Source: a virus
Lineage: Duplodnaviria; Caudoviricetes
Length of the DNA stretch: 64,000 bases
Virus record (IMG/VR): IMGVR_UViG_3300008740_000001
Coordinates: 1-64,000 of that record
Direction: 5' to 3' (one strand)
Each line of letters begins with the position of its first letter. Within the stretch, counting starts at the first letter, position 1. Shown in pieces: positions 26,215 to 51,660 of the stretch. The notes under the pieces are model-generated. The model saw only the letters and a program-made list of their open reading frames with translations. It was not told where the DNA came from and did not search any database. Position numbers and translations under genes: made by a program.

Positions 26215-26243
26215 TTGACAACTGTAATATAATCAGTTATTAT
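26215..26243 (+). promoter_or_regulatory. sigma70 promoter, probably producing a leaderless mRNA
   Basis: TTGACA(26215-20)-N17-TATTAT(26238-43); ATG only 6 nt later. Confidence 0.8.
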
Positions 26244-26249
26244 TAGAGT

Positions 26250-26825: not shown

Positions 26826-26826
26826 G

Positions 26827-26902
26827 TGGGGTGTAGCACAATTGGCCGTGCATCCGGTTGTTACCCGGAAGGATGGTGGTTCGAATCCACCCGCCCCAGC
26901 CA
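26827..26902 (+). tRNA. tRNA-Asn(GUU)
   Basis: U1-A72, G73, CCA; loop UU-GUU-AC. Confidence 0.93.
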
Positions 26903-28876: not shown

Positions 28877-29179
28877 ATGAACGAAACACTTGATCAACAA
28901 ATTGAGGCTGCATTTGATAATAAGAATCAGCCCGATTGGCCCGAGGGCCCGCTTAAGCAACTAGTCGTTGACTATGTTGGAGAAAAATCTGAAACGGAAC
29001 AGGACGTGACCATGGAGATGATGGTTGAGGTGATGGCTAAAGAATTCCCTGAATTTTTATTGGCCGTTGCAGAGGAAAACTGGATTCGTGGATATCATCA
29101 AGCCATGCACGATGTTGACGAAGGACGTAAACTTTTAGAGGCTCATCAGACTGAGAACAATGAAACCGGAACAAACTGA
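28877..29179 (+). CDS. hypothetical protein
   Basis: 100 aa; FLLAVAEENWIRGYHQA motif. Confidence 0.75.
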   Translation: MNETLDQQIEAAFDNKNQPDWPEGPLKQLVVDYVGEKSETEQDVTMEMMVEVMAKEFPEFLLAVAEENWIRGYHQAMHDVDEGRKLLEAHQTENNETGTN

Positions 29180-35571: not shown

Positions 35572-36398
35572 TGTCAACTTATATTATTGCCGAAATTGGC
35601 ATCAATCACAATGGCGATCTAAATATCGCTAAACGATTAATAGATATCGCTGCAGTGGCTGGTTGCGATGCGGTAAAGTTTCAAAAAAGAAATCCCGATG
35701 TGTGCGTACCCGAACACCAAAAGGGCGTCATGAGAGAGACGCCATGGGGAACGATGACATACTTGGATTACAAATACCGCATGGAATTTGGAAAAGCCGA
35801 GTATGATGAAATTGATCAATATTGTCGAGACAAAGGCATTGCATGGTCAGCCAGTCCGTGGGACATGGATAGTTTAGAATTCTTAAAACAGTATGATCTA
35901 CCGTTTATTAAAATACCATCTGCCATGATTACAAATGAGGAGTTGATGCGAGGCTGCGCCAATTCTGGCATGAAGGTGATCTTTTCTTCTGGTATGAGCA
36001 CTATTGAGGAAACCGATCAGGCTGTCAATTGGATGCGGGACGAAAACACTGAATTTGCACTTTTGCACTGTAATTCTACATATCCCGCGCCACTTGAAGA
36101 TTTGAATCTTAGATGCATACAGACTTTGAAGGAGCGCTATAATTGCGAGGTTGGCTATAGCGGTCATGAATTTAGACTAGGCACCTCGGTGGCTAGCATT
36201 TATTTGGGTGCTACGATTATCGAGCGTCATATCACGCTAGACAGGACGATGTGGGGTTCAGACCATTTAGCATCCGTAGAGCCCCAAGGGTTGATTAAGC
36301 TGGTAAAGGGCATTCGAGAATTGGAGATTGCCCTAGGCGACGGAGTTAAGAGAGTTACGGAAGGGGAACTTCCGGTAAGAAAGAAGTTGAGAGGCTAA
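35571..36398 (+). CDS. neuB: N-acetylneuraminate/nonulosonate synthase, short form without SAF domain
   Basis: IAEIGINHNGD, DAVKFQK, GYSGHE, IERHITLDR. Confidence 0.93.
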   Translation: MSTYIIAEIGINHNGDLNIAKRLIDIAAVAGCDAVKFQKRNPDVCVPEHQKGVMRETPWGTMTYLDYKYRMEFGKAEYDEIDQYCRDKGIAWSASPWDMDSLEFLKQYDLPFIKIPSAMITNEELMRGCANSGMKVIFSSGMSTIEETDQAVNWMRDENTEFALLHCNSTYPAPLEDLNLRCIQTLKERYNCEVGYSGHEFRLGTSVASIYLGATIIERHITLDRTMWGSDHLASVEPQGLIKLVKGIRELEIALGDGVKRVTEGELPVRKKLRG

Positions 36399-36399
36399 A

Positions 36400-37386
36400 A
36401 TGGAACTTGGTGCGCATTGGGGCCCATATCAGTTGGTTTTTAACAAAAACAACAAAGAAATGTTAAGCGAACACATAAGTGGCGTGCTACAATATATGAG
36501 ATATTATCCAAATTCAGTCTACGAAAACATATGGCTAGACGGGAATACTAATGAGTTGTTTAGTGCATCTCAAACTCTTTCTACTGGCAAATGTCCCATA
36601 AACCACATGTTCTGTTTGACACGCGAAGAATTCATCAATGATCAATATCCGACACACCAGCTTGGAATGAAACACAATTACGATGCGTTAAGGAATGTTT
36701 TTCTTAGTGAGAACACATTTGAGGCAATAAGTACAGAATTAAAATGTGGAGTCAACGAAGATCTGTTATCGCTAAGACACCAAGAAAAGGTTTTAATTGT
36801 GGGCGGAGGCCCTTCTACAAAACAAGTCGACTTTGCGAAACATAAAGATACTCCAGTTTGGACCATGAACGAGTTTTGGAAAAATCCGGTATTTGAATTT
36901 TTTAACAACATTCAGGCGGTGGCCTTGTGTGATGACGTTGATATCAATAGTTCGCAGCTGTGGGATTCGATTAATAATAATAATGCTGTGGTCCTGCAAG
37001 AGTTAAGTGATTTGGGCCCTGAGCGTGTCCAGTCAATTTATAACAAGGCCGGCCGGTCGACGTTTATTCATACACGATACAGATCAAAGCTGGGCATTGG
37101 CCCGAGAATGATTGTTTTAGCGATTATCCTAGGGGCCAAAGACATATATTTTTGTGGACTAGATGGCTATGATTCTGCTTCTGACGATACACACTCCTTT
37201 GAGTCTGGCAAAGACTATCCATATTGGTTCAAAGTGGGGGGTCACGCAATGCAAGCCCAGCAGCATGTGGTAACTTGGGATTATATTTTAAACTTTTTAA
37301 GACCCAGTTATGATTTCCGATTACACGATTTGTCTGCTGGAATGCCAAGTGTTAAGTATGGTTTTATGCAAGAGAATATTAAGTGA
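36400..37386 (+). CDS. DUF115/CstII-like putative ulosonate transferase
   Basis: LIVGGGPS, WTMNEF, IYFCGLDGY, HSFE. Confidence 0.65.
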   Translation: MELGAHWGPYQLVFNKNNKEMLSEHISGVLQYMRYYPNSVYENIWLDGNTNELFSASQTLSTGKCPINHMFCLTREEFINDQYPTHQLGMKHNYDALRNVFLSENTFEAISTELKCGVNEDLLSLRHQEKVLIVGGGPSTKQVDFAKHKDTPVWTMNEFWKNPVFEFFNNIQAVALCDDVDINSSQLWDSINNNNAVVLQELSDLGPERVQSIYNKAGRSTFIHTRYRSKLGIGPRMIVLAIILGAKDIYFCGLDGYDSASDDTHSFESGKDYPYWFKVGGHAMQAQQHVVTWDYILNFLRPSYDFRLHDLSAGMPSVKYGFMQENIK

Positions 37387-38072
37387 AAGATATTAACGAA
37401 ATAGCAGTAGTAATTCAGGCCCGCCTCGGCTCCCAGCGCGTTCCACGAAAAATGATTCGACCATTTGCAGACACAACTCTTCTTGATGTTGCATTAAAGA
37501 AGATTAGGCGATGCACTTCTTTTTCTCAAAATAATTTTTATTTGTCGGCGCATGAGCCAGAACTGGTGCTTCTTGGCGAAAAACACGGAGTCAACGTTTA
37601 CCGTCGATCAGCCAAGTCTGCGAATTCCGAAGGTACCCCCATGACTGAGATGTATGAATGGTGGGACCGCCTACCACATAAATATTGCGTATTGATAAAC
37701 GCATGCGCACCTTTTTTGCGTCCTGAGACAATAGACAACTTTGTAGAGGCCTACAAAATAAGCGATCAAGATGGGCTTTTTGGTGTAATTCATAAAAAAA
37801 ATTATTTTTGGAACGAACAACGAGAACTGTTAACTCCTCTTACCGAAGCGGTGATGAATACCAAGACGGTACCCGCAACATATGAGGCGGCTCATTGTCT
37901 CTACGCCGGCCGATTGGATAAAATAGGGGAAGATATATGGATGGGAAACTTTAATACACCGGGAGAAATAGGGCTATACATAATGGACGAGAAAGAAGCC
38001 TTGGACATTGATTATGAATGGCAATTTAATACATATGAAAAGCTATATAGAACATTATCAGAAGTGCGTTAA
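37383..38072 (+). CDS. neuA: CMP-sialic acid/ulosonate synthetase
   Basis: IQARLGSQRVPRK, CAPFL, LDIDYE. Confidence 0.85.
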   Translation: MKDINEIAVVIQARLGSQRVPRKMIRPFADTTLLDVALKKIRRCTSFSQNNFYLSAHEPELVLLGEKHGVNVYRRSAKSANSEGTPMTEMYEWWDRLPHKYCVLINACAPFLRPETIDNFVEAYKISDQDGLFGVIHKKNYFWNEQRELLTPLTEAVMNTKTVPATYEAAHCLYAGRLDKIGEDIWMGNFNTPGEIGLYIMDEKEALDIDYEWQFNTYEKLYRTLSEVR

Positions 38073-38868
38073 GCAAGCCCATGGGCCTGACCATATGTTC
38101 CTTGTCAAGCCAGTCTCCCCCGAGGATACTTTAGGCGAAGATATCGATTTAACACTAGAGGAGAATATTGAAACTTCAAAAGAATTCCGACAATTAGTAA
38201 AGTCGTTGAGTTTGAAAGTTTCGGATATTTTCCAAGACGGGACTCACATTCAAAGTACTTCGTTTTCGAACGAAATAATGGACACGCTGCAATTCCCCGA
38301 AGTTCATGAAATTTATGAACTTGCGTATGAACAGTTATTCAACTTGTATAAGTGTCACGTTACTACTAATCGTATACAAATATATCAAAACATATATTCC
38401 AAAGATACACCTTTGTCTTCATGGCAATGGCACTATGATGACAATCCTGTTCCGCAAAGAAAACTGTTTGTCTACTTGACGGATGTTGGTAGAGATGACG
38501 CTCCCTTTTGTTACTTGGGTGGCCCAACCGTTATTGGTACCACCCGAGATCAAGAGAGTACTGCATATCCATACAGAGTTGGGTCCTCGCGGATCTCACC
38601 TACCTATAGAAAAGAACAGGTGTTTAAAACTTCAAGAATTCCCGATCATTATATACGAAAGTTGCAAATGCGCCACGATGCCAGAGAATATTTTATCTTG
38701 GGCGAAGCAGGCACATCTTTTGTCTTTGATCCCAATATTATTCATAGAGCCACGATTCCCAAGCAGGGTCATCAACGCATAGCGCTTGTTTATCATCTTC
38801 ATCCGACATTGGAGAAGACTGAGCTACAAAATTTTTACAACAAGGATGTTAAAGTATATGCAATCTGA
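38008..38868 (+). CDS. PhyH-like Fe(II)/2-oxoglutarate dioxygenase (start uncertain)
   Basis: WHYD...KLFVYLTDV...APF...FDPNIIHRA. Confidence 0.75.
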   Translation: MIMNGNLIHMKSYIEHYQKCVKQAHGPDHMFLVKPVSPEDTLGEDIDLTLEENIETSKEFRQLVKSLSLKVSDIFQDGTHIQSTSFSNEIMDTLQFPEVHEIYELAYEQLFNLYKCHVTTNRIQIYQNIYSKDTPLSSWQWHYDDNPVPQRKLFVYLTDVGRDDAPFCYLGGPTVIGTTRDQESTAYPYRVGSSRISPTYRKEQVFKTSRIPDHYIRKLQMRHDAREYFILGEAGTSFVFDPNIIHRATIPKQGHQRIALVYHLHPTLEKTELQNFYNKDVKVYAI

Positions 38869-39721
38869 CAAAACATCATGCTTCGTGATCCCGTGCAAAT
38901 ATAGTAAAGAGATCCCGATTATTTTTAACTGCCTAAAGAGCATAAGAAAATTTCATCCGGATGATGAAATCTTTGTAGTAGACAGCAATTCAGAAGATAA
39001 AAGCTATTTTCAAGAGGCCTCCGAACAATATGGGGCTACGGTTTTAGATGTATCAAATAACAATTATTTAACCGGCGCCATTTGGTATGTGTTCAATCAT
39101 TACAAAAGGGACTTTTATTACTGTATTCACGATTCAATAGAACTGCTAGATAATCTCGCATCGCTGCAAGAACACAGAGTCTCACCTATTATGTACCATA
39201 AGCACTGGGAATGGCCCAAGGAACCCGAGACGGGAATGCGTATAGTTGACTGGTCAAAACAGCAAATAAAGAGCCACACTAATTTCACTTTTAGAGCCAG
39301 TGACTTTTATATTCTTCTGGGCGCAATGATGTGCTGCAAGAGGGAAGTCCTTGAAGGACTTAAAATGCAGGGGTTTGATAAGATCGTGCCATCCAACAAG
39401 TATCAAGAAGAATGCACGGAGAGATTGTGGGGATTCGCACTGGGAGAAATGGGATATAATCAAGACATAGAAGAAAACTCTATCCTCGGGCCCATGCGCC
39501 AAGGGCAAGGTCTCGGAACTGATTTTATTTCTAGCATTGCAGAAGATGATGATAGGGTTGTCTTTGAGGGAGTTAAATATTATAAGGATCCTGTCGGCAA
39601 ATATCATTTAGGAAATACGGACAGGGTGGTGTTGGATGACATACCCTTTGCTTTAAAACGAAACAAAATGTATGACGGTGACAAAGTGGTAAAATACTGG
39701 TGCAGCGTTAAGAGGAAGTAA
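38858..39721 (+). CDS. GT2-like (GT-A fold) glycosyltransferase
   Basis: FVIPCK, IFVVDSNS, CIHDS, ERLWG; start set at MQSDK. Confidence 0.7.
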   Translation: MQSDKTSCFVIPCKYSKEIPIIFNCLKSIRKFHPDDEIFVVDSNSEDKSYFQEASEQYGATVLDVSNNNYLTGAIWYVFNHYKRDFYYCIHDSIELLDNLASLQEHRVSPIMYHKHWEWPKEPETGMRIVDWSKQQIKSHTNFTFRASDFYILLGAMMCCKREVLEGLKMQGFDKIVPSNKYQEECTERLWGFALGEMGYNQDIEENSILGPMRQGQGLGTDFISSIAEDDDRVVFEGVKYYKDPVGKYHLGNTDRVVLDDIPFALKRNKMYDGDKVVKYWCSVKRK

Positions 39722-39722
39722 G

Positions 39723-40376
39723 ATGGCGGTAGCATGCTTTATCCCAATCAAAGAAAAGAGTACCAGAGTACCAAGAAAAAACTTCAGATATCTGCAGGAT
39801 CGGCGCCTTTTTGAACACATCATCGATACCGCAATCAAATCTGATAGTTTTGATAACATATATGTGGACACAGATAGTACAGAAATTAAGGAATATTGTA
39901 GAAAATCAGGAGTTTCGGTCATTCACAGGGAGCCCAAACTGGCAGAAGACACCGCTAACGGAAACGATTTGCTAAATCATTGGACTATGTTACACCCTGA
40001 ATACGACTATTATTTCCAGCTTCATGCCACCGCGCCATTTTTAAGCTCAACAACTGTTAAAAAATGTGTTAATATATTGACAGAAGCGAAGAATTATGAT
40101 TCTGTTTTTACAGCATATGAAAATTGCGGATGGTATTGGTATGAAAATACGCCGATTAATTATGATCCGGCCGAATTGCCTAGAAGTCAAGATGCCAAAA
40201 AGGTATACAGCGAAACTACTGGCCTATATGGAATAACTTCTTCGGCATTGAGGCATCTTGGGTGTCGTATCGGCTCTAAACCATATGTTTATTTTGTAGA
40301 TGAAGTTGAGGCGCATGATATCGACAATGAATTTGACTTTAAAATAGCGGAATTGATAGCGAGGGAATTAAAATAA
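39723..40376 (+). CDS. second CMP-ulosonate synthetase-like cytidylyltransferase
   Basis: IPIKEKSTRVPRKN, VDTDS, TAPFL, DIDNEFDF. Confidence 0.85.
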   Translation: MAVACFIPIKEKSTRVPRKNFRYLQDRRLFEHIIDTAIKSDSFDNIYVDTDSTEIKEYCRKSGVSVIHREPKLAEDTANGNDLLNHWTMLHPEYDYYFQLHATAPFLSSTTVKKCVNILTEAKNYDSVFTAYENCGWYWYENTPINYDPAELPRSQDAKKVYSETTGLYGITSSALRHLGCRIGSKPYVYFVDEVEAHDIDNEFDFKIAELIARELK

Positions 40377-41359
40377 TGTTAGACACTGAAAATATTGAAA
40401 GCAAATTTCATTCAATTATCAAATCTCAAGGATGGAATGATTATGTTAAGCAATTGAACTCTGTTGATGATGTGTATGTGATAGGGAACGGAGGCAATTG
40501 GGCGGTCGGCAGCCATGGGGCTATCGACAATCTCAAGATGTCAAAAGATAAAAGATTTTTTAGTCCGGACAGTACCGCTTATGTCACTGCGGCTTCGAAT
40601 GATTGGGGTTACGATAACTTATTTTTAAACTGGCTTAAGCATCAAAACAAAAACGGCGATCTATACAATGGCAAGGTGATGGTACTAGGACTTTCGTCTT
40701 CTGGAAATTCAGAAAACATCATTAGAGCGCTAAGGTGGGCTTCTGATGCCGGCATTCCGACATGTCTGATAACAGGGCAAAAAAGTAAAGAGCTTGAAAA
40801 GTATCCAACCATCAACACAGTAGAGGTTGACTTGGGGGTGCAGTATTACCACTCAGCAGAACTGTTAACGTTGTGGCTATTTTACGAAATGGTACACGTT
40901 ACGGGCGCCACCTGTCCGAAGTTCGTCGATAGAAAAGACGATTCTGTCGAAAGAAAACAATGGACGGGTATTAGAAAGCATAGCTATCCAGACGAGATGA
41001 TCAATATTGGTATTGACTTTGATGGTGTAATACACAGGTGTTCTAAGGGCTTCTATGATGGAACGATTTACGATGAACCTGTCGACGGCGCCGCAGAAGC
41101 TTTGAAGTCTTTAGCCGAAAAATACAATATTATAGTTTATACAGCAAAGGCCAAGCCAGATCGGCCATTGATAAGCGGAAAAACCGGCCAAGAGTTGGTG
41201 TGGGAATGGCTTGACAAGTGGAACTTTAGCCAGTATGTATGTGAAGTTACAGCAGAAAAGCCTAGGGCCAAGTTCTACATAGATGACAAAGCTATCCGGT
41301 TTGTTGATTGGGCAGATGCACTGGAGGCCATAGATACTCTTTATGATGAAAGTTATTAA
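40376..41359 (+). CDS. SIS-domain sugar isomerase (GmhA-like) fused to a HAD phosphatase
   Basis: IGNGGN, LSSSGNSENIIRAL; C-half IDFDGVIH...YIDDKA. Confidence 0.8.
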   Translation: MLDTENIESKFHSIIKSQGWNDYVKQLNSVDDVYVIGNGGNWAVGSHGAIDNLKMSKDKRFFSPDSTAYVTAASNDWGYDNLFLNWLKHQNKNGDLYNGKVMVLGLSSSGNSENIIRALRWASDAGIPTCLITGQKSKELEKYPTINTVEVDLGVQYYHSAELLTLWLFYEMVHVTGATCPKFVDRKDDSVERKQWTGIRKHSYPDEMINIGIDFDGVIHRCSKGFYDGTIYDEPVDGAAEALKSLAEKYNIIVYTAKAKPDRPLISGKTGQELVWEWLDKWNFSQYVCEVTAEKPRAKFYIDDKAIRFVDWADALEAIDTLYDESY

Positions 41360-42026
41360 AAATATATTTGCAGAAGAGAAACAGAAGAAATGTTTTATCA
41401 TGGGCACCGGCCCGTCTTTATCAGACACTCCTTTGCACTTGTTGAAAGAACATATCACAATAGGTGTCAACTTGGTGATGCATTCAGGATTTGTGCCAAA
41501 TTATTTATGTGTTAGTGATAGAGAGATGGCCGTCGATAACTTTGATGCTATTTTTAATGAGAAGATGGATAACGGTACATATGTTATAGCTAGAACCAAA
41601 AATCAACATGTTAATAATTTCCTAATGAGAAAGAGTAATGTGTATTTAATTGAAGGATTTAAAGAAAACAGACCAGTTAGGCCGCCCCATATAGATGAAC
41701 AGTTTTTGAAATTTGCAATGACTAAAAACGGGGTTGTCAACGACTTAGCTGTTCCGCTGGCAGTCTATCTGGGATTTAAGGAAATTTATTTATTAGGAGT
41801 CGATGGCGAACATGGCCCAGAGGCCCACTTCTATGATCACGTCAACGCTAAGGACAAGAAGGAATCAATCATAAGAGGGCCCCGCACGCCAACGAAATAT
41901 GACTTATTGCTCGAAATATTAAAACATAGAGACATAAGCCTGTATAATTGTAGTGTTAATGGAAATAAGACGCCCGAAATAGAAACTAAGAAACTAGGAG
42001 ACGTATTAAATGGTTCATGCCTCTGA
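41343..42026 (+). CDS. DUF115/MptE-like protein
   Basis: IMGTGPSL, IGVN, IYLLGVD, HFYD. Confidence 0.75.
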   Translation: MMKVIKNIFAEEKQKKCFIMGTGPSLSDTPLHLLKEHITIGVNLVMHSGFVPNYLCVSDREMAVDNFDAIFNEKMDNGTYVIARTKNQHVNNFLMRKSNVYLIEGFKENRPVRPPHIDEQFLKFAMTKNGVVNDLAVPLAVYLGFKEIYLLGVDGEHGPEAHFYDHVNAKDKKESIIRGPRTPTKYDLLLEILKHRDISLYNCSVNGNKTPEIETKKLGDVLNGSCL

Positions 42027-42732
42027 CATGCATTATCATCAAGAATTGATTGAGAAGCTGGTTCGCGCCACTTCTGCAAAAGTTGTATTAGAACTTGGCG
42101 TCCGTGCCATCGTTTCCCACCCGCGCAAAGGCACCTCGACATTCTTTTTCTGGAAATCATTGGCTCCAGAAGAGGGAAAACTTTATTCAGTTGATCTGAA
42201 AAACCCGGCAAGTCATAATCATTCAGAAGAATTCCTACTACGCGAATTACGAAGTTCAGGTAGATGGGAGTTTATCCAAGGAAATACCATGAATGTGTTC
42301 GAGGACATAGAGGCTCGCTTCCGGAAAGAGAATATAAGTGTGGACATTCTTTTCATCGACACGGACAAAGAAGGTGACTTAACAAAATATGAATTGGAAA
42401 ACTATTCTAAGCTGCTGGGGCCCAAAGGCATTATCATGATGCACGATACAGGGTGGGTACCCAGCAAGAGGGTGCATGAACTAGCCAGAGCAAACTCAGG
42501 CTGGCCGGCCCATGATTCGGCGGTTCAAGATTTCTTGCAGCAGACAGATTTTAAGATGAAAGCACAACTCGGAAGTTACAATATGGTCGTACTTTATAGA
42601 GATGTTGCCGATCTATGCGGAGTGAAGATTGATAATGATCTCCCGGTCGACGAAAATAGGGCGCCCTATGAAGACTCAAAAGTTGCACTACGGCGCCGCA
42701 AGTTTAACGAAATTTGGAGTAAATACGAATGA
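42010..42732 (+). CDS. class I SAM methyltransferase (Methyltransf_24-like)
   Basis: VLELGV, ILFIDT, IMMHDT. Confidence 0.8.
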   Translation: MVHASDMHYHQELIEKLVRATSAKVVLELGVRAIVSHPRKGTSTFFFWKSLAPEEGKLYSVDLKNPASHNHSEEFLLRELRSSGRWEFIQGNTMNVFEDIEARFRKENISVDILFIDTDKEGDLTKYELENYSKLLGPKGIIMMHDTGWVPSKRVHELARANSGWPAHDSAVQDFLQQTDFKMKAQLGSYNMVVLYRDVADLCGVKIDNDLPVDENRAPYEDSKVALRRRKFNEIWSKYE

Positions 42733-43913
42733 AAATTTTTAGAGAAAGTCTCGATAGCGAGAAGTATATTATGGTCGAATACTATTTAGAGTCCAAGACG
42801 ACACTAAGAGATGCCGCATGGAGCTTGGCCATTGGACAAAGTGTAGGTAATCCCAATGTAAGAAACCAGTGGGAGACCGATGAACTTTTTGAAAACCACG
42901 CATGTATGGTGCTCGGTGATGAAGAGTGGCTAGCATCTTCAAATTCTGGACATGTCGCCATTGGTTTTCCAGTCGACAATATCGATTTGTCAACTGATGG
43001 GATTTCTCACCTGTTATGTCAGATTATGGGAGGCCAGTTAGATATTGATATTGTTTTAAAATGTCATGTGCTGAATATTGAATTTCCCCAAGCGGCTTTA
43101 CAACATTTTCGTGGGCCAAAATATGGAATCTCTGGTATTCGAAAGTTTACAAAGGTGTATGATAAACCGCTTTTGGGCGGAATCGTTAAGCCCAAGATTG
43201 GCATTAGTCCAGAAGTGCTGTTGGAAATGGTCAAGGAAATGGTTGAAGGCGGTGTAAACTTTATTAAAGAAGACGAGATTATGTCTAACCCGCATTTCTG
43301 CACAATCGAAGATCGTGTCCCGAGAATAATGGAATATCTGAAAAACAAGAATGTAATTTATTCGGTTTGCATTAATTCTGATGCTCCGTACTTGTTAGAC
43401 AGAGTTCGACAAGTTCACTCTTTGGGCGGAAACTCTGTACATGTTAACTTCTGGAGCGGCTTAGGATCTTATAAGGCGATTAGAGATCTGGACTTACCAT
43501 TGTTTATTCATTTTCAGAAAAGCGGCGACAAGATCTTGACGAACAAAAGTCACGACTATCACATTGACTGGAGAGTCGTATGTGATCTGGCCGGCCTTAT
43601 GGGTGTTGATTTCATCCATGCTGGCATGTGGGGCGGCTATATGAGTGACAATGAGAAAGAACTCAAAGCAGTTGTGTCCACGCTACATAACCACGGAGTG
43701 GTGCCTGCATTAAGCTGCGGCATGCATCCGGGCTTGGTACAAGCCATCAACAGCCGCTTTGGGGTAGACTACATGGCGAACGTAGGAGGAGCCATCCACG
43801 GCCATCCTAGTGGCTCTCTTGGTGGCGCCCGAGCCATGCGCCAGTCAATTGATCACGACCACGGTTTAGAATATGAGCTAGCTATAGACAAGTGGGGTCT
43901 GGTTGATGGCTAG
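42729..43913 (+). CDS. RuBisCO-like protein (form IV RLP)
   Basis: GIVKPKIG, FIKEDE, FIHAG, SCGMHPG, GGAIHGHP; lacks E60, H294 and K334 equivalents. Confidence 0.92.
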   Translation: MKIFRESLDSEKYIMVEYYLESKTTLRDAAWSLAIGQSVGNPNVRNQWETDELFENHACMVLGDEEWLASSNSGHVAIGFPVDNIDLSTDGISHLLCQIMGGQLDIDIVLKCHVLNIEFPQAALQHFRGPKYGISGIRKFTKVYDKPLLGGIVKPKIGISPEVLLEMVKEMVEGGVNFIKEDEIMSNPHFCTIEDRVPRIMEYLKNKNVIYSVCINSDAPYLLDRVRQVHSLGGNSVHVNFWSGLGSYKAIRDLDLPLFIHFQKSGDKILTNKSHDYHIDWRVVCDLAGLMGVDFIHAGMWGGYMSDNEKELKAVVSTLHNHGVVPALSCGMHPGLVQAINSRFGVDYMANVGGAIHGHPSGSLGGARAMRQSIDHDHGLEYELAIDKWGLVDG

Positions 43914-44823
43914 GGACATCATAACAACTATGCCGGATTATAATGTTAGAATCTTAGTCTGTGGTATGTCGCGCAGTGGCAGTACGCTGTTAGTAAAAAT
44001 GATACGAAAGTATTTCGCTGAATACCACGGTTTAGTTTTACCAGTGTTGAGTAATAAACAGTTCTTGAACGCCCCACCTCGTTCGGGCAATTACATTGTC
44101 AAGACACACGTTCCAGATGTTAGTATTAAAAGAAAATACAAGCACGACCAACCCCGGGACCCTGATGATAAAGAACTTAAACAATATTTCTCGCTTACTG
44201 ATATTTTCCGTACAAAAAGAGATATAAGAGATGCAGCTGCTTCAGAAATTATAAGTTTGAACCTGCGTGAGCATTTCTTTCCGAGCGATGCCAAGGCGCT
44301 CCTAACTAAAAACGAAGATTACGAGTCTCCTTACTTAAGGGAAATTGTTAAAAAATTACACAGAGAACATATGATTTGGGCACATACCTTATCCCGCGTC
44401 CACACTCATCCAGATTTTACAGCATCCAGCACTAACACCAAGTGGTATGAGTGGAAATATGAAGATAGTATATCTGATCAGCACGCGGCATTTCGAAACG
44501 TTTTAGCGTTTTTAAAAGAAAGGCACGACTTTATCGAAGATTTGGACGACGCCTCTATCGCAAATTTGCTGGCCTCGCTGCCCGATCCAGTAGAATTACC
44601 TCGCAGCGAGGACGACTTCCGAGGCCTGCCTAGAGAATTCTGGAGAGACCCCGAAAAATTCGCAAGCGAGAACGTACCCTACAAAAAGAGGCTTGGTTGG
44701 GATGTGGGGGTGTCTAGTACCGGCGGCAAAATTGGATATTATAAAGAATTTTTTACAAAAGAACAATTAAAAGTCATTGATGGACAATGTGTTCAGTGGC
44801 TAAAAAGGAATGGTTATAAATGA
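43903..44823 (+). CDS. sulfotransferase-fold protein
   Basis: GMSRSGSTLL (5'-PSB-like), VKTH, RDIRDAAAS, WKYED. Confidence 0.7.
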   Translation: MMARDIITTMPDYNVRILVCGMSRSGSTLLVKMIRKYFAEYHGLVLPVLSNKQFLNAPPRSGNYIVKTHVPDVSIKRKYKHDQPRDPDDKELKQYFSLTDIFRTKRDIRDAAASEIISLNLREHFFPSDAKALLTKNEDYESPYLREIVKKLHREHMIWAHTLSRVHTHPDFTASSTNTKWYEWKYEDSISDQHAAFRNVLAFLKERHDFIEDLDDASIANLLASLPDPVELPRSEDDFRGLPREFWRDPEKFASENVPYKKRLGWDVGVSSTGGKIGYYKEFFTKEQLKVIDGQCVQWLKRNGYK

Positions 44824-45752
44824 AAAGATTGATTGTAACGACAGCAGATGATAAATTTGCACCCGGCACTGCTTTATTGTTATATTCCCTTAAAAGAAAT
44901 ATGGTGAGATTCGCAGAAACTGACGTAAAGGTGCTGTATACAAATTTGTCCGATGAGAATAAGAAAATGATTAAAAGTGTACTCTCTAGAGTACAGTTTG
45001 AAAAACCAGATATGGATTTTTGCGCAGGTATTAAGACGCTTTACGGCGCCGACAACCAAGACACTTATTTGTGTCTTGAGGCATTTAGACAACACGAATA
45101 CGATCAAGTAATATGCTTAGATAGTGATATGCTTTGTATAGGGGACATCTCCCCGTTGCTCGGCTATGATAAGGTAATCATGGCATGTATTGGAAAAAGA
45201 AACCTTAACACAAAAGAACAGACCTATCATCATGGAATTGACAAGTTTAATGCCGGCTTTATGGTGATTGGTAAGCAAATTCTACAGAACAATAGGGTGT
45301 ATCAAGACTTGACATCAATAGTACGACATATTAGAGACAACAAGCGTGATGGCCTATACAACGTCTTTGGTGATAATCGAAAAGTGTTTAACGATCAGGA
45401 TGTAATAAGAGTATACTTTAGCAGTGCTCCAACACATATTCTGCCGGATTGGTATAATTTTAAGAATTTTTGTTTGGGCCCAAACTTTGAAGAAACAAAC
45501 AAGATTTTCGATACTCACCAAAACGACGTAAAGATTCTGCATTTTTCGGGGAAAAGAAAACCATGGGCGAATAAGACGGACCGCTCTGGTGGACCCGTTG
45601 ACGGGAAGATAGCAGGGATTTATGATGTCTGCTCAGTGGCAGATCCGGAGGAAATGAACAACAGCGCCGCCTGTCACATATGGCACGATTATTATGAAGA
45701 ATGTTTCGGAGAGAAGTGCATTAATGATTGGTACAGGCACGACAGGAGTTAA
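44820..45752 (+). CDS. GT8 glycosyltransferase
   Basis: CLDSDML (DxD), FNAG, DQD, HFSGKRKPW. Confidence 0.9.
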   Translation: MKRLIVTTADDKFAPGTALLLYSLKRNMVRFAETDVKVLYTNLSDENKKMIKSVLSRVQFEKPDMDFCAGIKTLYGADNQDTYLCLEAFRQHEYDQVICLDSDMLCIGDISPLLGYDKVIMACIGKRNLNTKEQTYHHGIDKFNAGFMVIGKQILQNNRVYQDLTSIVRHIRDNKRDGLYNVFGDNRKVFNDQDVIRVYFSSAPTHILPDWYNFKNFCLGPNFEETNKIFDTHQNDVKILHFSGKRKPWANKTDRSGGPVDGKIAGIYDVCSVADPEEMNNSAACHIWHDYYEECFGEKCINDWYRHDRS

Positions 45753-45758
45753 GGCATC

Positions 45759-46493
45759 GTGAATATTTTAATTCCAATGGCCGGCGCCGGCTCTCGTTTT
45801 ACGCAAGAAGGCTACGAACTGCCTAAACCACTGATCGACATAGCCGGCCTCCCGATGATTCAGAGATGCATCAACAGCTTAGATATAACAGGACAGTATA
45901 TTTTTATCATTAGAAAATATGAGACTCTAGCTGAGACCATTTTACTTCGAGATATTTTGAAACAAATAACGGAAGAACCAATTATCATTGAAATAGATCA
46001 CGTTACAGAAGGCGCCGCATGTACATGCTTGTTGGCAAAGGAACATATAAACAATTCCGAACAACTGATTTCAGTCAATTGTGATCAGATAATGAATTGG
46101 GACTCTAAGGAGTTTCTAAATCTTGTAGAAGGTGCAAACGTTGATGGTTGTGTGGTAACATATAATTCTGATTCGATCAAAAATAGCTACATTGAACTAG
46201 ACGAGCAGGGGTTTGGCGTTCGGCTAGCCGAGAAGGATCCAATTAGTAACCTCTCTTTAACAGGAATCCACTATTGGAAACAGGGTCGCTACTTTGTAAA
46301 ATCGGCGGAAGCTATGATAAACGACAACATCAGAGTAAATAACGAGTTTTATGTGGCACCAACCTATAATCATATGATTTCGGATGGACTAAAGGTCAAC
46401 AATTATCATATTGAGAACTCCAACTTTCACCCTGTTGGTACTCCAGAAGATTTAAAGAAGTATCTTCATAGCCATTATGGTATAGAGAAATGA
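45759..46493 (+). CDS. sugar-phosphate nucleotidyltransferase
   Basis: IPMAGAGSRF...PKPLI, NCDQ, EFYVAP, GTPEDL. Confidence 0.9.
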   Translation: MNILIPMAGAGSRFTQEGYELPKPLIDIAGLPMIQRCINSLDITGQYIFIIRKYETLAETILLRDILKQITEEPIIIEIDHVTEGAACTCLLAKEHINNSEQLISVNCDQIMNWDSKEFLNLVEGANVDGCVVTYNSDSIKNSYIELDEQGFGVRLAEKDPISNLSLTGIHYWKQGRYFVKSAEAMINDNIRVNNEFYVAPTYNHMISDGLKVNNYHIENSNFHPVGTPEDLKKYLHSHYGIEK

Positions 46494-46816
46494 AAATTTT
46501 AAAGCTAAAAGACATGAAGGCCGGCTGGTTTATTGGTAATTTTGAACCAACTGCCTATAAAACTTCTGATTTTGAGGTATGTTATAAAGAACACCCCGCC
46601 GGCGAATCATGGGATGTGCATTTTCATAAGAAAGCTCTGGAAATTAACTATCTGATTCGTGGAAAGATGTGTATACAGGGCAAAATTTTGGAGCAAGGCG
46701 ATATTTTTATGTTATATCCGTGGGAAGTGGCAGACCCAGTTTTCATAGAAGACTGTGAGGTTGTTGTGGTCAAAGTACCTTCCGTTCCAAACGATAAATT
46801 TACAATTAAGGAATAA
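46490..46816 (+). CDS. cupin-domain protein
   Basis: MKAGWFIGNFEP, HFHKKALEIN, KVPSVPNDK. Confidence 0.8.
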   Translation: MKILKLKDMKAGWFIGNFEPTAYKTSDFEVCYKEHPAGESWDVHFHKKALEINYLIRGKMCIQGKILEQGDIFMLYPWEVADPVFIEDCEVVVVKVPSVPNDKFTIKE

Positions 46817-46818
46817 AA

Positions 46819-47517
46819 ATGGGAATTAATCATATAGGCAAGCTAGAGCGTCTTGAAACGGCGCTCCTACAAGCTGGAAAAGAATATCAAGGAGCAAAAG
46901 TGTGTGACTTGGGAAATCAAAGAATGTGGGAATCTGCTGCAGAAGGTTTGGGTATACCGATGGATTATTATGCAGGAGCTTATCTGCTTAAAGATTATTT
47001 TAAAAAGAAAAGGGTCTCTTTTCACACTTCAATCGATTTAAATGGAAAGGATGGTTCTTTGAGTCTAGATCTGACAAAACCAATTGATGTAGAAAAGATT
47101 GGGGGCCCCTTTACTGTGGTTACAAACTATGGTACTAGTGAACATGTGCCCGGTCAATATTGGTGTTTTAGAAATATTCATCATTTAGTAGAGCTTGGTG
47201 GCCTAATGTGTCATGTGGTGCCTCGTGTTGGAAATTGGGATGGCAAAAATTGTGGTTGCAAGAAACCTCATTGCCCATATTATTACGATACAGACTTTTT
47301 TGGTCTTTTGGCCGAGGCTAATGGTTATAAAATCATAGAGAACGATATATGCAATTATGATCACGAAACTCCCAAAAGAGCCCGGGAAGAATGTTTTGTA
47401 ATATATCAAAAGACCACAGAACAAGAGTTTGTTTCGCTCGATAAATTTGAAAAATTTCCAATAAAGTGTATTTCAAATCCGTCAAAAACAGGGAATTATT
47501 CCCCGGGAGGAAGATAA
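46819..47517 (+). CDS. class I SAM methyltransferase-like protein
   Basis: VCDLG, IDLNG, VVTNYGTSEHV, GGLMCH. Confidence 0.7.
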   Translation: MGINHIGKLERLETALLQAGKEYQGAKVCDLGNQRMWESAAEGLGIPMDYYAGAYLLKDYFKKKRVSFHTSIDLNGKDGSLSLDLTKPIDVEKIGGPFTVVTNYGTSEHVPGQYWCFRNIHHLVELGGLMCHVVPRVGNWDGKNCGCKKPHCPYYYDTDFFGLLAEANGYKIIENDICNYDHETPKRAREECFVIYQKTTEQEFVSLDKFEKFPIKCISNPSKTGNYSPGGR

Positions 47518-48510
47518 ATGTCAGAAACGGTTTTAGTAACCGGCGGAGCCGGCTTCATTGGCCATGCGGTAATTGAATATTTATTGGCCAACACAGATCA
47601 CAATGTGGTCTCACTAGATAGGTTGGATGTCTCAGGCAACTTGAATCGCTTGGGCGCCCTGATAGGGGAACATCCAGAATGGCGAACCCGACTAAGGATA
47701 GTGTGGCACGATCTTAAGGCCCCAGTGCACGATTACGTAATTAACAAAATTGGTCAGGTTGACTATATTTTACATTTGGCAGCCGGCTCACATGTTGATA
47801 GAAGCATTTTATATCCGCTGGAATATGTAATGGACAATGTTGTGGGCACATGTAACATCCTTGACTATGCACGTAAAGAGTGTGAAGATCTAAAGCTGTT
47901 TTTATATTTCAGCACGGATGAGGTCTTCGGCGCCGCCCCTCGTGGTATAACCTTTAAAGAAAATGATCGCTATAATGCCGGCAATCCTTATGCTGCATCT
48001 AAAGCTGCTGGGGAGGAGTTGTGTGTCGCATACGAAAATACATATAGCATGCCAATTATCATAACCCACACAATGAACGTATACGGACCTAGGCAGCATC
48101 CTGAAAAGTATTTGCCTCTTATTATCAACAAGGTGCTCAATGGAGATACACTGGAGGTGCATTCAAATCCGCAGCTTACAGAAGCTAGCAAGAGGCATTA
48201 TTTGCACTCTAGGGATGTAGCTGCAGCAGTTCATTTTTTGATGCAAAATCACAAAGTTGGCGAAAAATACAATATTGTGGCAAACGAAGAGACAGATAAT
48301 TTAGATTTAGCAATTAAGATTGCCGAAATCATTGGCAAGCCTTTAAAGTATAAATTGGTCGACCCACAGATTACCAGACCCCGCCATGACTTTCGTTACG
48401 CACTGTGCGGAGAAAAGCTGAGAGAAATGGGATGGACTCAGGAAATTGAACTTGTGTCGGGATTAGAAGAAGTTGTTCAATGGTTTATTGAAAACGAGCA
48501 CTGGAGGTAA
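47518..48510 (+). CDS. rfbB: dTDP-glucose 4,6-dehydratase-like extended SDR
   Basis: TGGAGFIG, AAGSHVDRS, STDEV, YAASK. Confidence 0.88.
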   Translation: MSETVLVTGGAGFIGHAVIEYLLANTDHNVVSLDRLDVSGNLNRLGALIGEHPEWRTRLRIVWHDLKAPVHDYVINKIGQVDYILHLAAGSHVDRSILYPLEYVMDNVVGTCNILDYARKECEDLKLFLYFSTDEVFGAAPRGITFKENDRYNAGNPYAASKAAGEELCVAYENTYSMPIIITHTMNVYGPRQHPEKYLPLIINKVLNGDTLEVHSNPQLTEASKRHYLHSRDVAAAVHFLMQNHKVGEKYNIVANEETDNLDLAIKIAEIIGKPLKYKLVDPQITRPRHDFRYALCGEKLREMGWTQEIELVSGLEEVVQWFIENEHWR

Positions 48511-48514
48511 TTAA

Positions 48515-48958
48515 ATGATTTGGATAGCACATAGGGGGAATATTGATGGCCCAAAACCCGAAATGGAAAACCGGCCGGAATATTTATTAGCCGCCACTGA
48601 AAAAGGTTATGATGTAGAAGTAGATGTTTGGCTAGCCGGAGATAAATTATTTCTTGGTCATGACGAGCCTCAATATGAAACAAATATCGAGTTTTTAAAT
48701 AATGAGCATTTTTGGTGTCATTGTAAAAATGCCGAAGCGCTCAAGCTTTTGCTTGAGCATGGAATTCACTGTTTCTTCCATATCGGAGATGATGTTACAT
48801 TGACCTCAAAGAACTACATCTGGACCTTTCCGAAGAAAAGATTGATCTCCGGAGCCATTTGTGTCATGCCAGAATATGGCTACAGGGGCGATATTGATGG
48901 ATGTATCGGCGTGTGCAGCGATAATATTCTTGAATGGGAGAAGCGATATAATGGCTGA
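48515..48958 (+). CDS. glycerophosphodiester phosphodiesterase-like (GDPD/PLC) protein
   Basis: IAHRGN, DVEVDVW, LGHD, HCKN. Confidence 0.75.
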   Translation: MIWIAHRGNIDGPKPEMENRPEYLLAATEKGYDVEVDVWLAGDKLFLGHDEPQYETNIEFLNNEHFWCHCKNAEALKLLLEHGIHCFFHIGDDVTLTSKNYIWTFPKKRLISGAICVMPEYGYRGDIDGCIGVCSDNILEWEKRYNG

Positions 48959-49301
48959 AGTATATACAGAAGAGCGTCCATGGGGCAAGTTTGAGAACCT
49001 ATTAGAATCAGATTACTGTAAAGTAAAGAGGATTACGGTTAACCCGGGTCAAAGGTTGAGTTATCAATATCACCATAAGCGTAATGAAGTTTGGACAATC
49101 GTGCAGGGTACTGGGCTGATAACTATAGACGACAACGCAACTTGGATCCAAAAAGGAACAACGGTTGAAATCCCCGCCGGCTCAAAACATAGGATTCAAA
49201 ACGCGACCGAGGGACCCCTTGTATTTATCGAGGTCCAGCACGGCTCCTATTTCGGTGAAGATGACATTGTAAGGATTAGTGATGATTACGAAAGAAACTG
49301 A
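48951..49301 (+). CDS. mannose-6-phosphate isomerase type II-like cupin
   Basis: EERPWG, SYQYHHKRNEVW, EVQHGSYFGEDDIVR; start set at MAEVY. Confidence 0.88.
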   Translation: MAEVYTEERPWGKFENLLESDYCKVKRITVNPGQRLSYQYHHKRNEVWTIVQGTGLITIDDNATWIQKGTTVEIPAGSKHRIQNATEGPLVFIEVQHGSYFGEDDIVRISDDYERN

Positions 49302-49926
49302 GGATAAAGTTTCAAAGGTGATTTGCAAAGACAAGGAATTGTTCTTTGTGCATATACCGAAAAACTATGGCACTTCAATAATGCACATCGTATTCCAAGA
49401 TATTCGCGGTGCCGCCACTCACATGACGGCGGATCAGATCAACTCGATAGAACAATATTCAGAGTATAAAAACTTTTGTTTTGTCAGAGATCCTATTGAA
49501 AGGTTCATAAGTGTATATTTGTGGCGTAAGCGAAAAGACGAGCTTATTGCCCCTTTGGGCCTTGCTGGTACGCTGGATCTTCTGTGTGAGTCGGGCATGA
49601 ATCAAGTAATTGGGAAAGATTTCCAAACTGAGCCAGACAAGCTTAATAGAATGTTTTTGAAACAATCAACGTGGGTTAATCAAAATACTGTATTTGTGGG
49701 CAGGTGTGAAAACTTTGTTTACGATTTGAACAGTTTGAAGAATAAGTATGATTTGGATTTCCCCATCCGCGAGCTTAAAACCAATCGTCAACTTAAGTCT
49801 ACAAAAAAAGAAACAAAAAGTAAACTTCTCAATATTTTTGATAATTCTCCCGACTTGAAGAATAAATTTTATGAATATTACGACGAAGATTACGAGCGCT
49901 TCCAATACAGTAGGGAGACCTCATGA
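49279..49926 (+). CDS. sulfotransferase family 2 protein
   Basis: FVHIPKNYGTS, FVRDPIERFIS, YDEDYERFQY. Confidence 0.85.
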   Translation: MMITKETEDKVSKVICKDKELFFVHIPKNYGTSIMHIVFQDIRGAATHMTADQINSIEQYSEYKNFCFVRDPIERFISVYLWRKRKDELIAPLGLAGTLDLLCESGMNQVIGKDFQTEPDKLNRMFLKQSTWVNQNTVFVGRCENFVYDLNSLKNKYDLDFPIRELKTNRQLKSTKKETKSKLLNIFDNSPDLKNKFYEYYDEDYERFQYSRETS

Positions 49927-50825
49927 CAGCAGAACAGAAATGGTTAACCCCAGATCATGCCGGTTTTTATAGGGGCGGCCACCCATCGGTGTATTGGTAT
50001 AATGATAGAGTCATGGAACGCAGAAAGTTGTATCCAAACTGGGAATCTCTGCGGGATGAAAATAAGGCTCTCACTGCAGTCGCCCACCGTGTAGCTCACG
50101 ACGGGTATTATAAAATTGAGGATTTTTGGAACACAGATTTGTTAGATCAGCTTAGAGATCAAACATTGCAACTTATGGAGCAAAACCACCCGGACAAAAT
50201 TAAACACCCCCAAGAAGGTCGCCATACACAGGTTTATATGCCTTTGTTGAATGCTCCTGTTGCAAATCAGCTGGCAACCGATCCACGCATCCTTGCTATA
50301 GCGACTGCTTTTCTAAATTGTTTCCCGGCATTAGGCACATCAAATTTACGATTGAGTACGGCGGAAAAGTCCGAATCAAAGGGCACCTGTATGTTCCATA
50401 GAGATTTTAACAGCCCAGTAAAGTTTATTAAGTTTTTTACATATCTCAACGACGTTACAATGGAAAATGGTCCGTTTACTTACGTGGAGGCCTCGAACAG
50501 AGAAATGCCAGTACAGCCACATTGGAGCACTCATCACCGATGGCCAGATGAAACAATAGAGTCGATTTATGGAAAAGATAGAATAAAGAACATAACGGCG
50601 AATTACGGCGATCTCTTGATAGCCACAACGGTTGGTTTTCACAAGGGCCTACAGTTACAAAAAGGCAGTCGATTAATGCTTACGTTGAATTATCTTGTAC
50701 ATCCCGAGCTTGGCGGACAGGGCATTTATGGTCCGCCCGAACAACCGCATCAAGTTTCAATGGAAACATTTAAGTCTACAAAGCACCCTGAATCTGGCTT
50801 GTACGATTTTATGACCAAGGTATGA
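49923..50825 (+). CDS. PhyH-like Fe(II)/2-oxoglutarate dioxygenase
   Basis: FHRD, KFFTYLNDV...GPF, FHKG. Confidence 0.8.
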   Translation: MTAEQKWLTPDHAGFYRGGHPSVYWYNDRVMERRKLYPNWESLRDENKALTAVAHRVAHDGYYKIEDFWNTDLLDQLRDQTLQLMEQNHPDKIKHPQEGRHTQVYMPLLNAPVANQLATDPRILAIATAFLNCFPALGTSNLRLSTAEKSESKGTCMFHRDFNSPVKFIKFFTYLNDVTMENGPFTYVEASNREMPVQPHWSTHHRWPDETIESIYGKDRIKNITANYGDLLIATTVGFHKGLQLQKGSRLMLTLNYLVHPELGGQGIYGPPEQPHQVSMETFKSTKHPESGLYDFMTKV

Positions 50826-50826
50826 A

Positions 50827-51660
50827 ATGAAAACTGCACTAATTATCCCGGGCCACATAAGAAATATAGACCAGACAATAGATAATCAAAAGTCAAAACT
50901 GATTAAGCCCAACGATTGTGATATTTTCGTGTATACATCAACCATGAATACTCAACGCTGGACCATCCACACTCAGGATCGCAGATACTATCATGCTCCG
51001 AAGGGCGAAATTCACCATAGCAACAGGTATTTGAAACAAAGCGCCGGCACTGTGGGTTCTATTTATCTTCTAGATAAAGAATATGTTGCAGATGTGTTAA
51101 GAAGGAATTATGGTGAAAGATTGAAAGGCTATGTCATAGAAGAAGAAATTCCAAATGACGCCAGCAGAGAACTGGATCACTTGAAATGGGAATTTCACAG
51201 AGTTAGACAATTTAAAAAAGCATACGAATGCAACAAATTAATGCATGAGCACGAAGAAGAGCATGGGTTTAAATATGATTTTGTCATCCGCGCCCGCACG
51301 GATATCACATTAGACCAAACAATCACTCCGGTTGATTACGCCAGTGCTTATATCAGTGAATATTCACGGGAAGAATACGAAAAGTCTGTATTTCTCTTTG
51401 GAGGCTGGCCCGATCCCACCGGAAGAAGCAAATCTGGTAGGGGGTTGTTTGATGGATTTGCTTTCGGCCACCCCACAGCGATGGATGTTTATTTTGATGT
51501 TTATAATACCAAAAAGATATACGAAAACAGTGGCCACCCAACGGATCTTGAACATCCCGCTAACCAGCTAGAACAACATATAGAAGAAAATAATGTGGAA
51601 CTGGTTTATCTTAAAGGCTGGACAGGGAAGCATAATCGGGGATATAAACTTACTAGGTGA
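50827..51660 (+). CDS. glycan-locus protein, putative glycosyltransferase-like
   Basis: KTALIIPGHIR ... YDFVIRARTD ... DGFAFG pattern typical of viral glycan loci. Confidence 0.6.
   Translation: MKTALIIPGHIRNIDQTIDNQKSKLIKPNDCDIFVYTSTMNTQRWTIHTQDRRYYHAPKGEIHHSNRYLKQSAGTVGSIYLLDKEYVADVLRRNYGERLKGYVIEEEIPNDASRELDHLKWEFHRVRQFKKAYECNKLMHEHEEEHGFKYDFVIRARTDITLDQTITPVDYASAYISEYSREEYEKSVFLFGGWPDPTGRSKSGRGLFDGFAFGHPTAMDVYFDVYNTKKIYENSGHPTDLEHPANQLEQHIEENNVELVYLKGWTGKHNRGYKLTR

Follow-up and report, generated by a model that had tools for sequence, protein, structure and literature searches.

What does a virus do with a protein of the RuBisCO fold that is encoded among genes for sugar chemistry? The question is raised by the opening 64,000 nucleotides of a virus record (IMG/VR record IMGVR_UViG_3300008740_000001) that is complete at 203,859 bp and has terminal repeats. 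This stretch, which we call the window, encodes an intact, 394-aa RuBisCO-like protein (RLP) on the plus strand at 42729..43913. A preliminary description of this DNA had placed the RLP in a sugar-nucleotide pathway and proposed that it runs biosynthetically, making an unusual, possibly branched, sugar phosphate that is nucleotide-activated for a viral glycan. Evaluating the locus against its relatives in viruses and cells, we confirmed the observation and found the interpretation partly supported. Judging from sequence comparison, the RLP is probably the hallmark enzyme of a small, mobile gene cassette that makes a sugar-like, nucleotide-activated unit for a glycan on a surface or on the virion, and its conserved partners are a nucleotidyltransferase (NT), a cupin and a glycerophosphodiester phosphodiesterase-like (GDPD-like) protein, and those only.

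Genes that travel with the RLP

To identify the genes that recur beside the RLP, we retrieved 58 loci from IMG/VR and another 4 from metagenomes that encode RLP relatives at 49–84% identity and searched them with every protein of the surrounding glycan island; with cellular loci included, the related loci came to 108. Three genes recurred, all on the plus strand in the window: a sugar-phosphate NT (45759..46493, 244 aa) in 60 of the 62 viral and metagenome loci, a 108-aa monocupin (p108, 46490..46816) in 56, and a 147-aa GDPD-like protein (p147, 48515..48958) in 57, with every other island gene found in 0–12 of the 62. At the cellular loci the NT was adjacent in 41 of 45, p108 in 13 and p147 in 20. 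Collapsing the RLPs at 70% identity left 45 clusters, in which the NT lay within 5 kb of the RLP in 42, p108 in 30 and p147 in 26, with median gaps across these non-redundant clusters of 295, 32 and 602 bp, respectively. The NT and the RLP also occur as single polypeptides, in the order NT::RLP in P0048, P0089, P0092, P0094 and P0104 (P0048 and P0104 confirmed by Pfam) and in the reverse order, RLP::NT, in P0121 (by Pfam). The tie between the RLP and nucleotide activation of a sugar-like phosphate, which the preliminary description had drawn from this one genome, thus holds across viral and cellular loci and in fusions of both orders.

The common layout, NT-p108-RLP-p147, is a tight and often overlapping block that occurs in at least six arrangements, some of them divergent. 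In the window the block is split apart by inserted tailoring genes across 42729-48958, with the NT 1.8 kb downstream of the RLP. The nameable neighbours in the loci examined are all of glycan type, including GT9, GT17, GT61 and GT2 glycosyltransferases, a DegT aminotransferase, UDP-glucose dehydrogenase, methyltransferases and a HAD::NT protein. A LicD-family gene (1e-42) stands divergent from the RLP-NT pair in 4 of 4 Legionellaceae loci, where the cupin and p147 are absent, and the locus of one NT::RLP fusion (L004) is flanked by WavE genes.

Several further candidates were considered as partners and rejected. The short-chain dehydrogenase/reductase (SDR) dehydratase was present at about 40 of the 108 loci with low identity, LicD was limited to the four Legionellaceae loci, and GT17, GT61, GT8 and sulfotransferase genes were each found at 4–8 loci.

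Sequence identity and active-site residues of the RLP

The window RLP matches the Pfam large-subunit model well above its cut-off (RuBisCO_large, PF00016, E = 2.9e-33, 115.8 bits against 30.1). Among the 101 RuBisCO and RLP chains of the PDB that match it, the best is 2cwx (2.7e-38), a form III RuBisCO from Pyrococcus horikoshii, and 2,3-diketo-5-methylthiopentyl 1-phosphate (DK-MTP-1-P) enolases follow at about 1e-34. Yet it falls under every NCBIfam cut-off, scoring 174.9 against 497 for the form III model TIGR03326, 161 against 438 for NF003252, 155.5 against 409 and 125.4 against 513.6 for the MtnW models NF007095 and TIGR03332, and 137.6 against 700 for the OiaX model NF042437. We therefore refer to it as 'form IV-like' and as a member of an NT-linked clade, on the basis of PF00016, 2cwx and the tree described below.

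To call residues, we used a HMMER alignment to 2cwx and an alignment of 39 diverse clade members within a superfamily alignment, with positions given in RbcL numbering. The window RLP retains K175 and K177 (KPKIG), the carbamylation site K201/D203/E204 (KEDE), H327, S379, G381 and G403/404, as the preliminary description had it for those residues it listed; in the protein's own numbering, K154 corresponds to K175 and K180-E-D182-E183 to K201/D203/E204. E60 is replaced by G, N123 by G, H294 by Q, R295 by K and K334 by Y, which agrees with the substitutions listed before except at N123, where the Q that had been assigned is the next residue. Across the 39 members, eight positions never vary (K175, K177, K201, D203, E204, S379, G381 and G403). 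All 39 also have E60G, with an invariant Q after it, H294Q and K334Y; N123G, T65N and W66P are found in 38, and G380C in 37, with either K or R at position 295. By contrast, of seven form III-like representatives in the alignment, most retain E, N, H and K at positions 60, 123, 294 and 334.

E60, N123, H294 and K334 are required for carboxylation, and because all four are replaced, the window RLP is expected to be non-carboxylating, in line with the earlier view that it is unlikely to fix CO2. The NT-linked clade has kept the residues for enolisation along with the P1 phosphate pocket, and has swapped its carboxylation and hydration residues for a new and strictly conserved set. Together with the family scores, this pattern supports the view that the RLP is neither a carboxylase nor a methionine-salvage enzyme.

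A distinct clade in viruses and cells

To place the RLP, we built a maximum-likelihood tree of 125 sequences comprising representatives from the whole protein universe and the named cellular loci, with the other clades labelled from the NCBIfam scores of 10 representatives (among them P0220 as a true MtnW at 652 bits, P0238 as OiaX-like at 524 and P0158 as form III at 468/450). All NT-linked RLPs fall into one clade of 40 rows, and the split between it and the remaining 85 rows has a Shimodaira–Hasegawa-like approximate likelihood ratio (SH-aLRT) support of 99. In this tree, which holds no verified DeepYkr, Photo or NonPhoto references, the clade lies outside a 28-row branch with MtnW and the MtnW-like P0177 and P0187. 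Clustering with methionine-salvage RLPs, one of the outcomes that would have spoken against the earlier interpretation, is thus not what the phylogeny shows; the NT-linked clade stands apart from the MtnW, OiaX-like and form III branches alike. The other such outcome, a lack of co-occurrence with the sugar genes at other loci, is likewise not what was observed. A Beckwithbacteria RLP (L073, 57% identity) nests among its phage sequences.

Marine metagenomes hold many hundreds of clade members. One search for relatives of the window RLP returned 2,609 matches, the best 120 of them at 67–84% identity, and a tblastn search with the window RLP against 50,697 GenBank phage records gave no match, either because cultured phage relatives lack it or because records close to this genome are masked. 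Scanning 185,579 species genomes, we found 46 cellular loci. Among the carriers are many single-cell genomes of SAR11 and two chromosomes, one of Candidatus Pelagibacter (complete, 62% identity) and one of Verrucomicrobiae (closed, 66% identity). Further carriers include Beckwithbacteria, Saccharibacteria, Woesearchaeota/Nanoarchaeia and Elusimicrobia, Azospirillum oleiclasticum, Turneriella, Balneola and Sphingobacteriales, and, at about 36% identity, Legionella nautarum, L. maceachernii, L. drozanskii and Tatlockia. The label 'phage RLP' given before is correct for the window, because the record is a complete virus record with a T4-type major capsid protein gene (PF07068, 5e-60), but the clade is not phage-specific, as it extends to SAR11, Legionella, Azospirillum, candidate phyla radiation (CPR) bacteria and DPANN archaea.

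Some related sequences and loci are recorded here as separate observations. Outside the NT-linked clade, we noted a TIR domain::RuBisCO fusion (P0194), possibly a defence-related use of the fold, and two IF-2B-type isomerase::RuBisCO fusions (P0163 and P0186). One SAR11 single-cell genome (L094, 5984-11923) has its RLP between two NT paralogues, in a block GT17-p147-NT-RLP-NT beside lepA and with a GT61 gene near; GT17 and GT61 are families known mainly from eukaryotes. Eight GVMAG-labelled IMG/VR contigs of 7–202 kb carry the NT-cupin-p147-RLP block seen on phage contigs (L018, L019, L023, L025, L026, L030, L032 and L059). Either these contigs come from large phages that were assigned to giant-virus bins, or the cassette truly extends to Nucleocytoviricota.

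Partner proteins

In the window, the NT matches the NCBIfam AglF/RmlA_long model at 5e-11. A profile of 42 members has as its top match an uncharacterised NDP-sugar pyrophosphorylase (PDB 4evw, 1.4e-38), followed by ManC (about 1e-11), RmlA and HddC-type sugar-1-phosphate enzymes between 1e-13 and 1e-8, with IspD at just 9e-4. The NT has an invariant Glu-Lys pair, E158-K159, which may correspond to a motif of sugar-1-phosphate enzymes.

The monocupin p108 has three invariant residues (H44, H46 and E51) and an AlphaFold2 (AF2) model with a pLDDT of 96. Its closest PDB entries are the phosphomannose isomerases (PMI) of Thermococcus (7zvm/7zvy), of about 105 aa, and its closest Swiss-Prot models are the C-terminal PMI cupin domains of ManC, AlgA and XanB. 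On motifs and predicted fold, we regard p108 as a candidate PMI-like aldose-ketose isomerase acting on a sugar phosphate.

The invariant columns of p147 include the GDPD catalytic motifs HRG, EN, ExD and GHD, and its profile matches a solved GDPD weakly (7e0v, E = 1e-3). Its AF2 model (pLDDT 96) has GDPDs as best Foldseek matches, and its closest counterpart in structure and sequence is an AlphaFold database entry, a 152-aa 'GP-PDE domain' protein (A8G604, presumably from a Prochlorococcus genome) with a TM score of 0.89 and 38% identity. A further entry, named a nucleotidyltransferase, aligns to p147 over its first 198 residues and may be a GDPD-like::NT fusion.

A fifth, looser partner is often present. 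A DUF7796/WavE-like family of about 250 aa, assembled by jackhmmer, occurs at 31 loci, mostly directly after p147 and often duplicated; its atlas neighbours carry DUF7796/WavE, and a PDB profile search with the family gave no match. The window copy (50827..51660, plus strand), a candidate transferase for the cassette product, is a weak member, matching the jackhmmer family at just 8.7e-6 and Pfam DUF7796 at E = 0.0026.

The surrounding glycan island and other features of the window

The cassette lies within a glycan island of about 20 kb on the plus strand (31015..51660, by Pfam and NCBIfam), most of whose genes are missing from other RLP loci. These encode three GT4 proteins, NeuB, two PseF/NeuA-like cytidylyltransferases, a GT2, a GmhA-like SIS+HAD protein and MptE-like proteins, and further methyltransferases, two sulfotransferase-like proteins, a GT8, an RmlB-like dehydratase, a PMI cupin and a PhyH dioxygenase. 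Between RLP and NT stand a sulfotransferase-like open reading frame (ORF; 43903-44823) and a GT8 glycosyltransferase (44820-45752), both on the plus strand and identified by Pfam, absent from the preliminary description and found only at the three closest loci (L001-L003). Between p108 and p147 are a probable S-adenosylmethionine (SAM) methyltransferase (46819-47517, plus strand), for which methyltransferases among its atlas neighbours are a lead only and a PDB phmmer search gave no match, and an RmlB-like 4,6-dehydratase of the SDR type (47518-48510, plus strand, TIGR01181, 2.2e-77). The SIS+HAD protein at 40376 matches both domains weakly in Pfam and GmhA in NCBIfam at 2e-11.

The neighbours named previously are therefore largely present as described (SIS-HAD at 40376, NT at 45759, cupin at 46490, SDR at 47518 and GDPD-like at 48515), except that we found no separate HAD gene within 42729-48958. 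Their supposed relevance fares differently: NeuB, the glycosyltransferases, the sulfotransferases, the SDR and the SIS-HAD protein are variable cargo, and of the genes listed before only the NT, the cupin and the GDPD-like gene recur with the RLP.

Other features of the window were noted in passing. A separate nonulosonic-acid branch at 35571-40376, with a NeuB-family synthase (1e-78), the two PseF/NeuA-like cytidylyltransferases and CST-I/MptE-like proteins, is missing from nearly all other RLP loci. A phage tmRNA lies at 19518-19938 (tag ANNNYYFEESRLAA) and is followed at 19943-26902 by five tRNAs (Gly, Lys, Ile-UAU of 95 nt, Arg and Asn), and PhoH is also encoded. A 345-aa ORF (8069-9106) matches a protein-kinase domain (PF00069, 5e-8; PHROG serine-threonine kinase). 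A 241-aa ORF (29160-29885) has a sub-threshold match to the anthrax lethal factor N/C-terminal domain (PF07737, 1.1e-5, 25.7 bits against a cut-off of 27.4) and also matches a metallopeptidase M90 model, so that it may be zinc metallopeptidase-like. Searching the large structural-looking ORFs with PHROGs and Pfam gave almost no matches: ORFs of 771, 969 and 776 aa have neither a Pfam nor a PHROG match, and a 2,522-aa ORF (56274-63842) has none in Pfam.

Discussion

A proposed route to an activated sugar-like unit. In the chemistry of RuBisCO and its relatives, the carbamate-Mg2+ site and K175 take a proton from beside the carbonyl of a phosphorylated ketose to give an enediolate. We infer a scheme for the cassette on this footing, in its substrate, its order and each of its chemical steps, and its biosynthetic direction is suggested by the gene context. 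Because the carbamylated-lysine/Mg2+ site, K175, K177 and the P1 pocket are kept, the RLP should bind a ketose phosphate and deprotonate it next to the carbonyl to give the enediolate, which, because E60, N123, H294 and K334 are gone, would have to be reprotonated to an isomer, an epimer or an enol. The PMI-like cupin would then interconvert ketose and aldose forms, the NT would couple the phosphate to a nucleoside monophosphate, and the unit would be installed by a transferase, WavE/DUF7796-like in phages and SAR11 and LicD in Legionellaceae. The cassette so envisaged would comprise the NT, the mini-cupin isomerase, the RLP, the mini GDPD-like phosphodiesterase and, often, the DUF7796/WavE-like transferase.

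Several points weigh against this scheme. It names no substrate and gives p147 no step, and with the cupin and p147 absent from many cellular loci the pathway may differ by lineage. The NT is closer to sugar-1-phosphate enzymes (ManC, RmlA) than to polyol-phosphate ones, which is at odds with the finding that no kinase or mutase that would bring phosphate to the anomeric position is conserved in the cassette. The hints from the transferases conflict, LicD pointing to phospho-alcohol transfer and GT17, GT61 and WavE to glycosyl transfer. Finally, the RLP could act after the NT, on a nucleotide-linked compound.

Some of these points feed an alternative that we consider possible though rather unlikely, namely that the cassette makes a CDP- or NDP-linked polyol- or ketose-phosphate, comparable to CDP-ribitol or CDP-glycerol, which is added as a phosphodiester decoration and handled by p147. 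This would give the full GDPD catalytic motif set of p147 a use and would fit the lack of a conserved mutase or anomeric kinase, as well as the LicD gene, of a phospho-alcohol transferase family, that adjoins RLP-NT in all four Legionellaceae loci, which have neither p147 nor the cupin. The phosphates of characterised RLP substrates are likewise non-anomeric (PMC5893883). Against it, the NT profile lies closer to ManC, RmlA and HddC than to IspD, the invariant E158-K159 may mark a sugar-1-phosphate enzyme, no conserved reductase is present, and SAR11 and phage loci have GT17, GT61 and WavE-like glycosyltransferases in place of LicD.

The order of steps is at issue in another alternative, in which the NT would first make an NDP- or CDP-linked ketose, a look-alike of ribulose 1,5-bisphosphate (RuBP) with a nucleotide diphosphate in place of one phosphate, and the RLP would isomerise or epimerise it, much as tailoring enzymes act on NDP-4-keto sugars. 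The two fusion orders are compatible with either sequence of steps, and the strict conservation of the P2-site and N-domain changes (T65N, W66P, R295K/R and H298D) could mean a pocket for a larger anionic group. The frequent RmlB-like SDR and DegT aminotransferase neighbours are enzymes of NDP-sugar tailoring, but they are not conserved partners. We know of no RuBisCO-superfamily enzyme with a nucleotide-linked substrate, and in known structures loop 6 closes the active site over a small sugar phosphate; on balance we think this order unlikely.

Far less probable is that the RLP serves as an auxiliary metabolic gene for salvage, either of sulfur or methionine or of pentoses and nucleotides (of the AMP-pathway kind), and came to lie in a glycan island by chance. 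Form III RuBisCO and DK-MTP-1-P enolase are its top sequence matches, and an RLP-cupin pair is known from the methylthioadenosine (MTA)-isoprenoid shunt, but its scores are far under the family cut-offs, the SH-aLRT of 99 separates its clade from MtnW, OiaX-like and form III sequences, and the NT recurs with it as set out above. Among the Pfam- and NCBIfam-scanned neighbours in the window and at related loci there was no MtnA, MtnP, MtnX, MtnD or MtnB/K, extending to those loci the earlier statement that no methionine-salvage genes are adjacent, and Pfam-scanned neighbours included neither an AMP phosphorylase nor an IF-2B-type isomerase gene. We regard the salvage explanation as largely refuted already. 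That the RLP is a working CO2-fixing RuBisCO, for which its full-length large-subunit fold, carbamate/Mg site, K175 and K177 could be cited, is practically out of the question, as E60, N123, H294 and K334 are replaced in all, or almost all, of the 39 members aligned. Nor did we notice a phosphoribulokinase among those neighbours that have an annotation.

Comparison with known systems. The reading as a biosynthetic, sugar-activating cassette finds partial precedents in two systems: ManC for an NT with a cupin, and the MTA-isoprenoid shunt for an RLP with a cupin (PMC5893883). In that shunt, in Rhodospirillum rubrum and Rhodopseudomonas palustris, a DeepYkr RLP isomerises a ketose 1-phosphate through an enediolate and an adjacent small cupin acts on the product (PMC5893883). 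The likeness to the window is one of gene neighbourhood, and the DeepYkr system differs in being catabolic or salvage-type, in its methylthio substrates and in having no nucleotidyltransferase or GDPD-like gene. The bifunctional PMI and GDP-mannose pyrophosphorylase enzymes ManC, AlgA and XanB likewise place an NT and a small cupin isomerase in one pathway, that of GDP-mannose; there the two are fused, whereas in the cassette they are separate genes, sequence identity is low (10–23%), and the pathway needs a phosphomannomutase and has neither an RLP nor a GDPD-like protein.

Other RLPs are similar in chemistry and different in setting. MtnW/YkrW shares the RuBisCO fold, the carbamate/Mg site and non-carboxylating enolisation chemistry, but belongs to a separate clade whose methionine-salvage neighbours were not found at the scanned RLP loci, and its representative has V at K177 and K at N123, where the window clade has retained K177 and carries G in place of N123. 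The RLPs of apiose pathways (the OiaX decarboxylase and the transcarboxylase/hydrolase type) act on unusual sugar-acid phosphates, in a catabolic context that is not NT-linked, and the OiaX-like P0238 lies elsewhere in the tree. No feature of the locus supports the branched sugar of apiose or hamamelose type that the preliminary description had entertained, the OiaX score in particular being far under its cut-off.

A more specific version of the proposed scheme, which we put forward as speculative and doubtful, would lead from a ketose of the pentose-phosphate pathway to an NDP-sugar with no need of a mutase or kinase, through the RLP and the mini-cupin together. Here the RLP would carry out a 1,3-isomerisation in the reverse sense of the R. 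rubrum reaction, taking an omega-phosphorylated ketose, for example xylulose or ribulose 5-phosphate, to a ketose 1-phosphate, from which the cupin would make an aldose 1-phosphate for activation by the NT. This would supply GT61-, GT17- or WavE-like transferases with a donor of a rare pentose (or heptose), on the surfaces of SAR11, Legionella and phages. If true, this would be the first anabolic role of the RuBisCO fold besides CO2 fixation.

Prior literature and significance. Phage RLPs as such are already known: Jaffe, Castelle, Dupont & Banfield (2019) described about 80 'form IV-like' phage RLPs, one from a myovirus of about 200 kb, that group with Beckwithbacteria and have divergent key residues, and left their function 'unclear' (PMC6389311). 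Matched by description, their clade is almost certainly the NT-linked clade described here; it was treated there as essentially one of phages and Beckwithbacteria, whereas we find it also in SAR11, Legionella, Azospirillum, Verrucomicrobiae, Bacteroidota, Spirochaetota and DPANN. The words nucleotidyl, glycosyl and polysaccharide do not occur in that text (PMC6389311), and the literature we searched contained nothing describing an RLP with a nucleotidyltransferase in a viral, O-antigen, SAR11 or IV-GOS context. The earlier claim of an undescribed RLP role thus needs narrowing: the NT-linked cassette, its cellular range and its biosynthetic reading appear undescribed, and the occurrence of RLPs in phages is not new.

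To our knowledge, the RLPs characterised so far all serve salvage or catabolic pathways (those of methionine salvage, the MTA-isoprenoid shunt and apiose breakdown), and the reading proposed here, if true, would add a biosynthetic role to the well-studied RuBisCO family. The hypothesis is directly testable, because some carriers (Legionella and Azospirillum) are isolate genomes. For T4-type marine phages, it suggests a portable module that decorates virions or the infected cell, and, if true, it would mean a new activated sugar or phospho-sugar on the surfaces of Legionella, of SAR11, which are among the ocean's most abundant cells, and of SAR11 phages.

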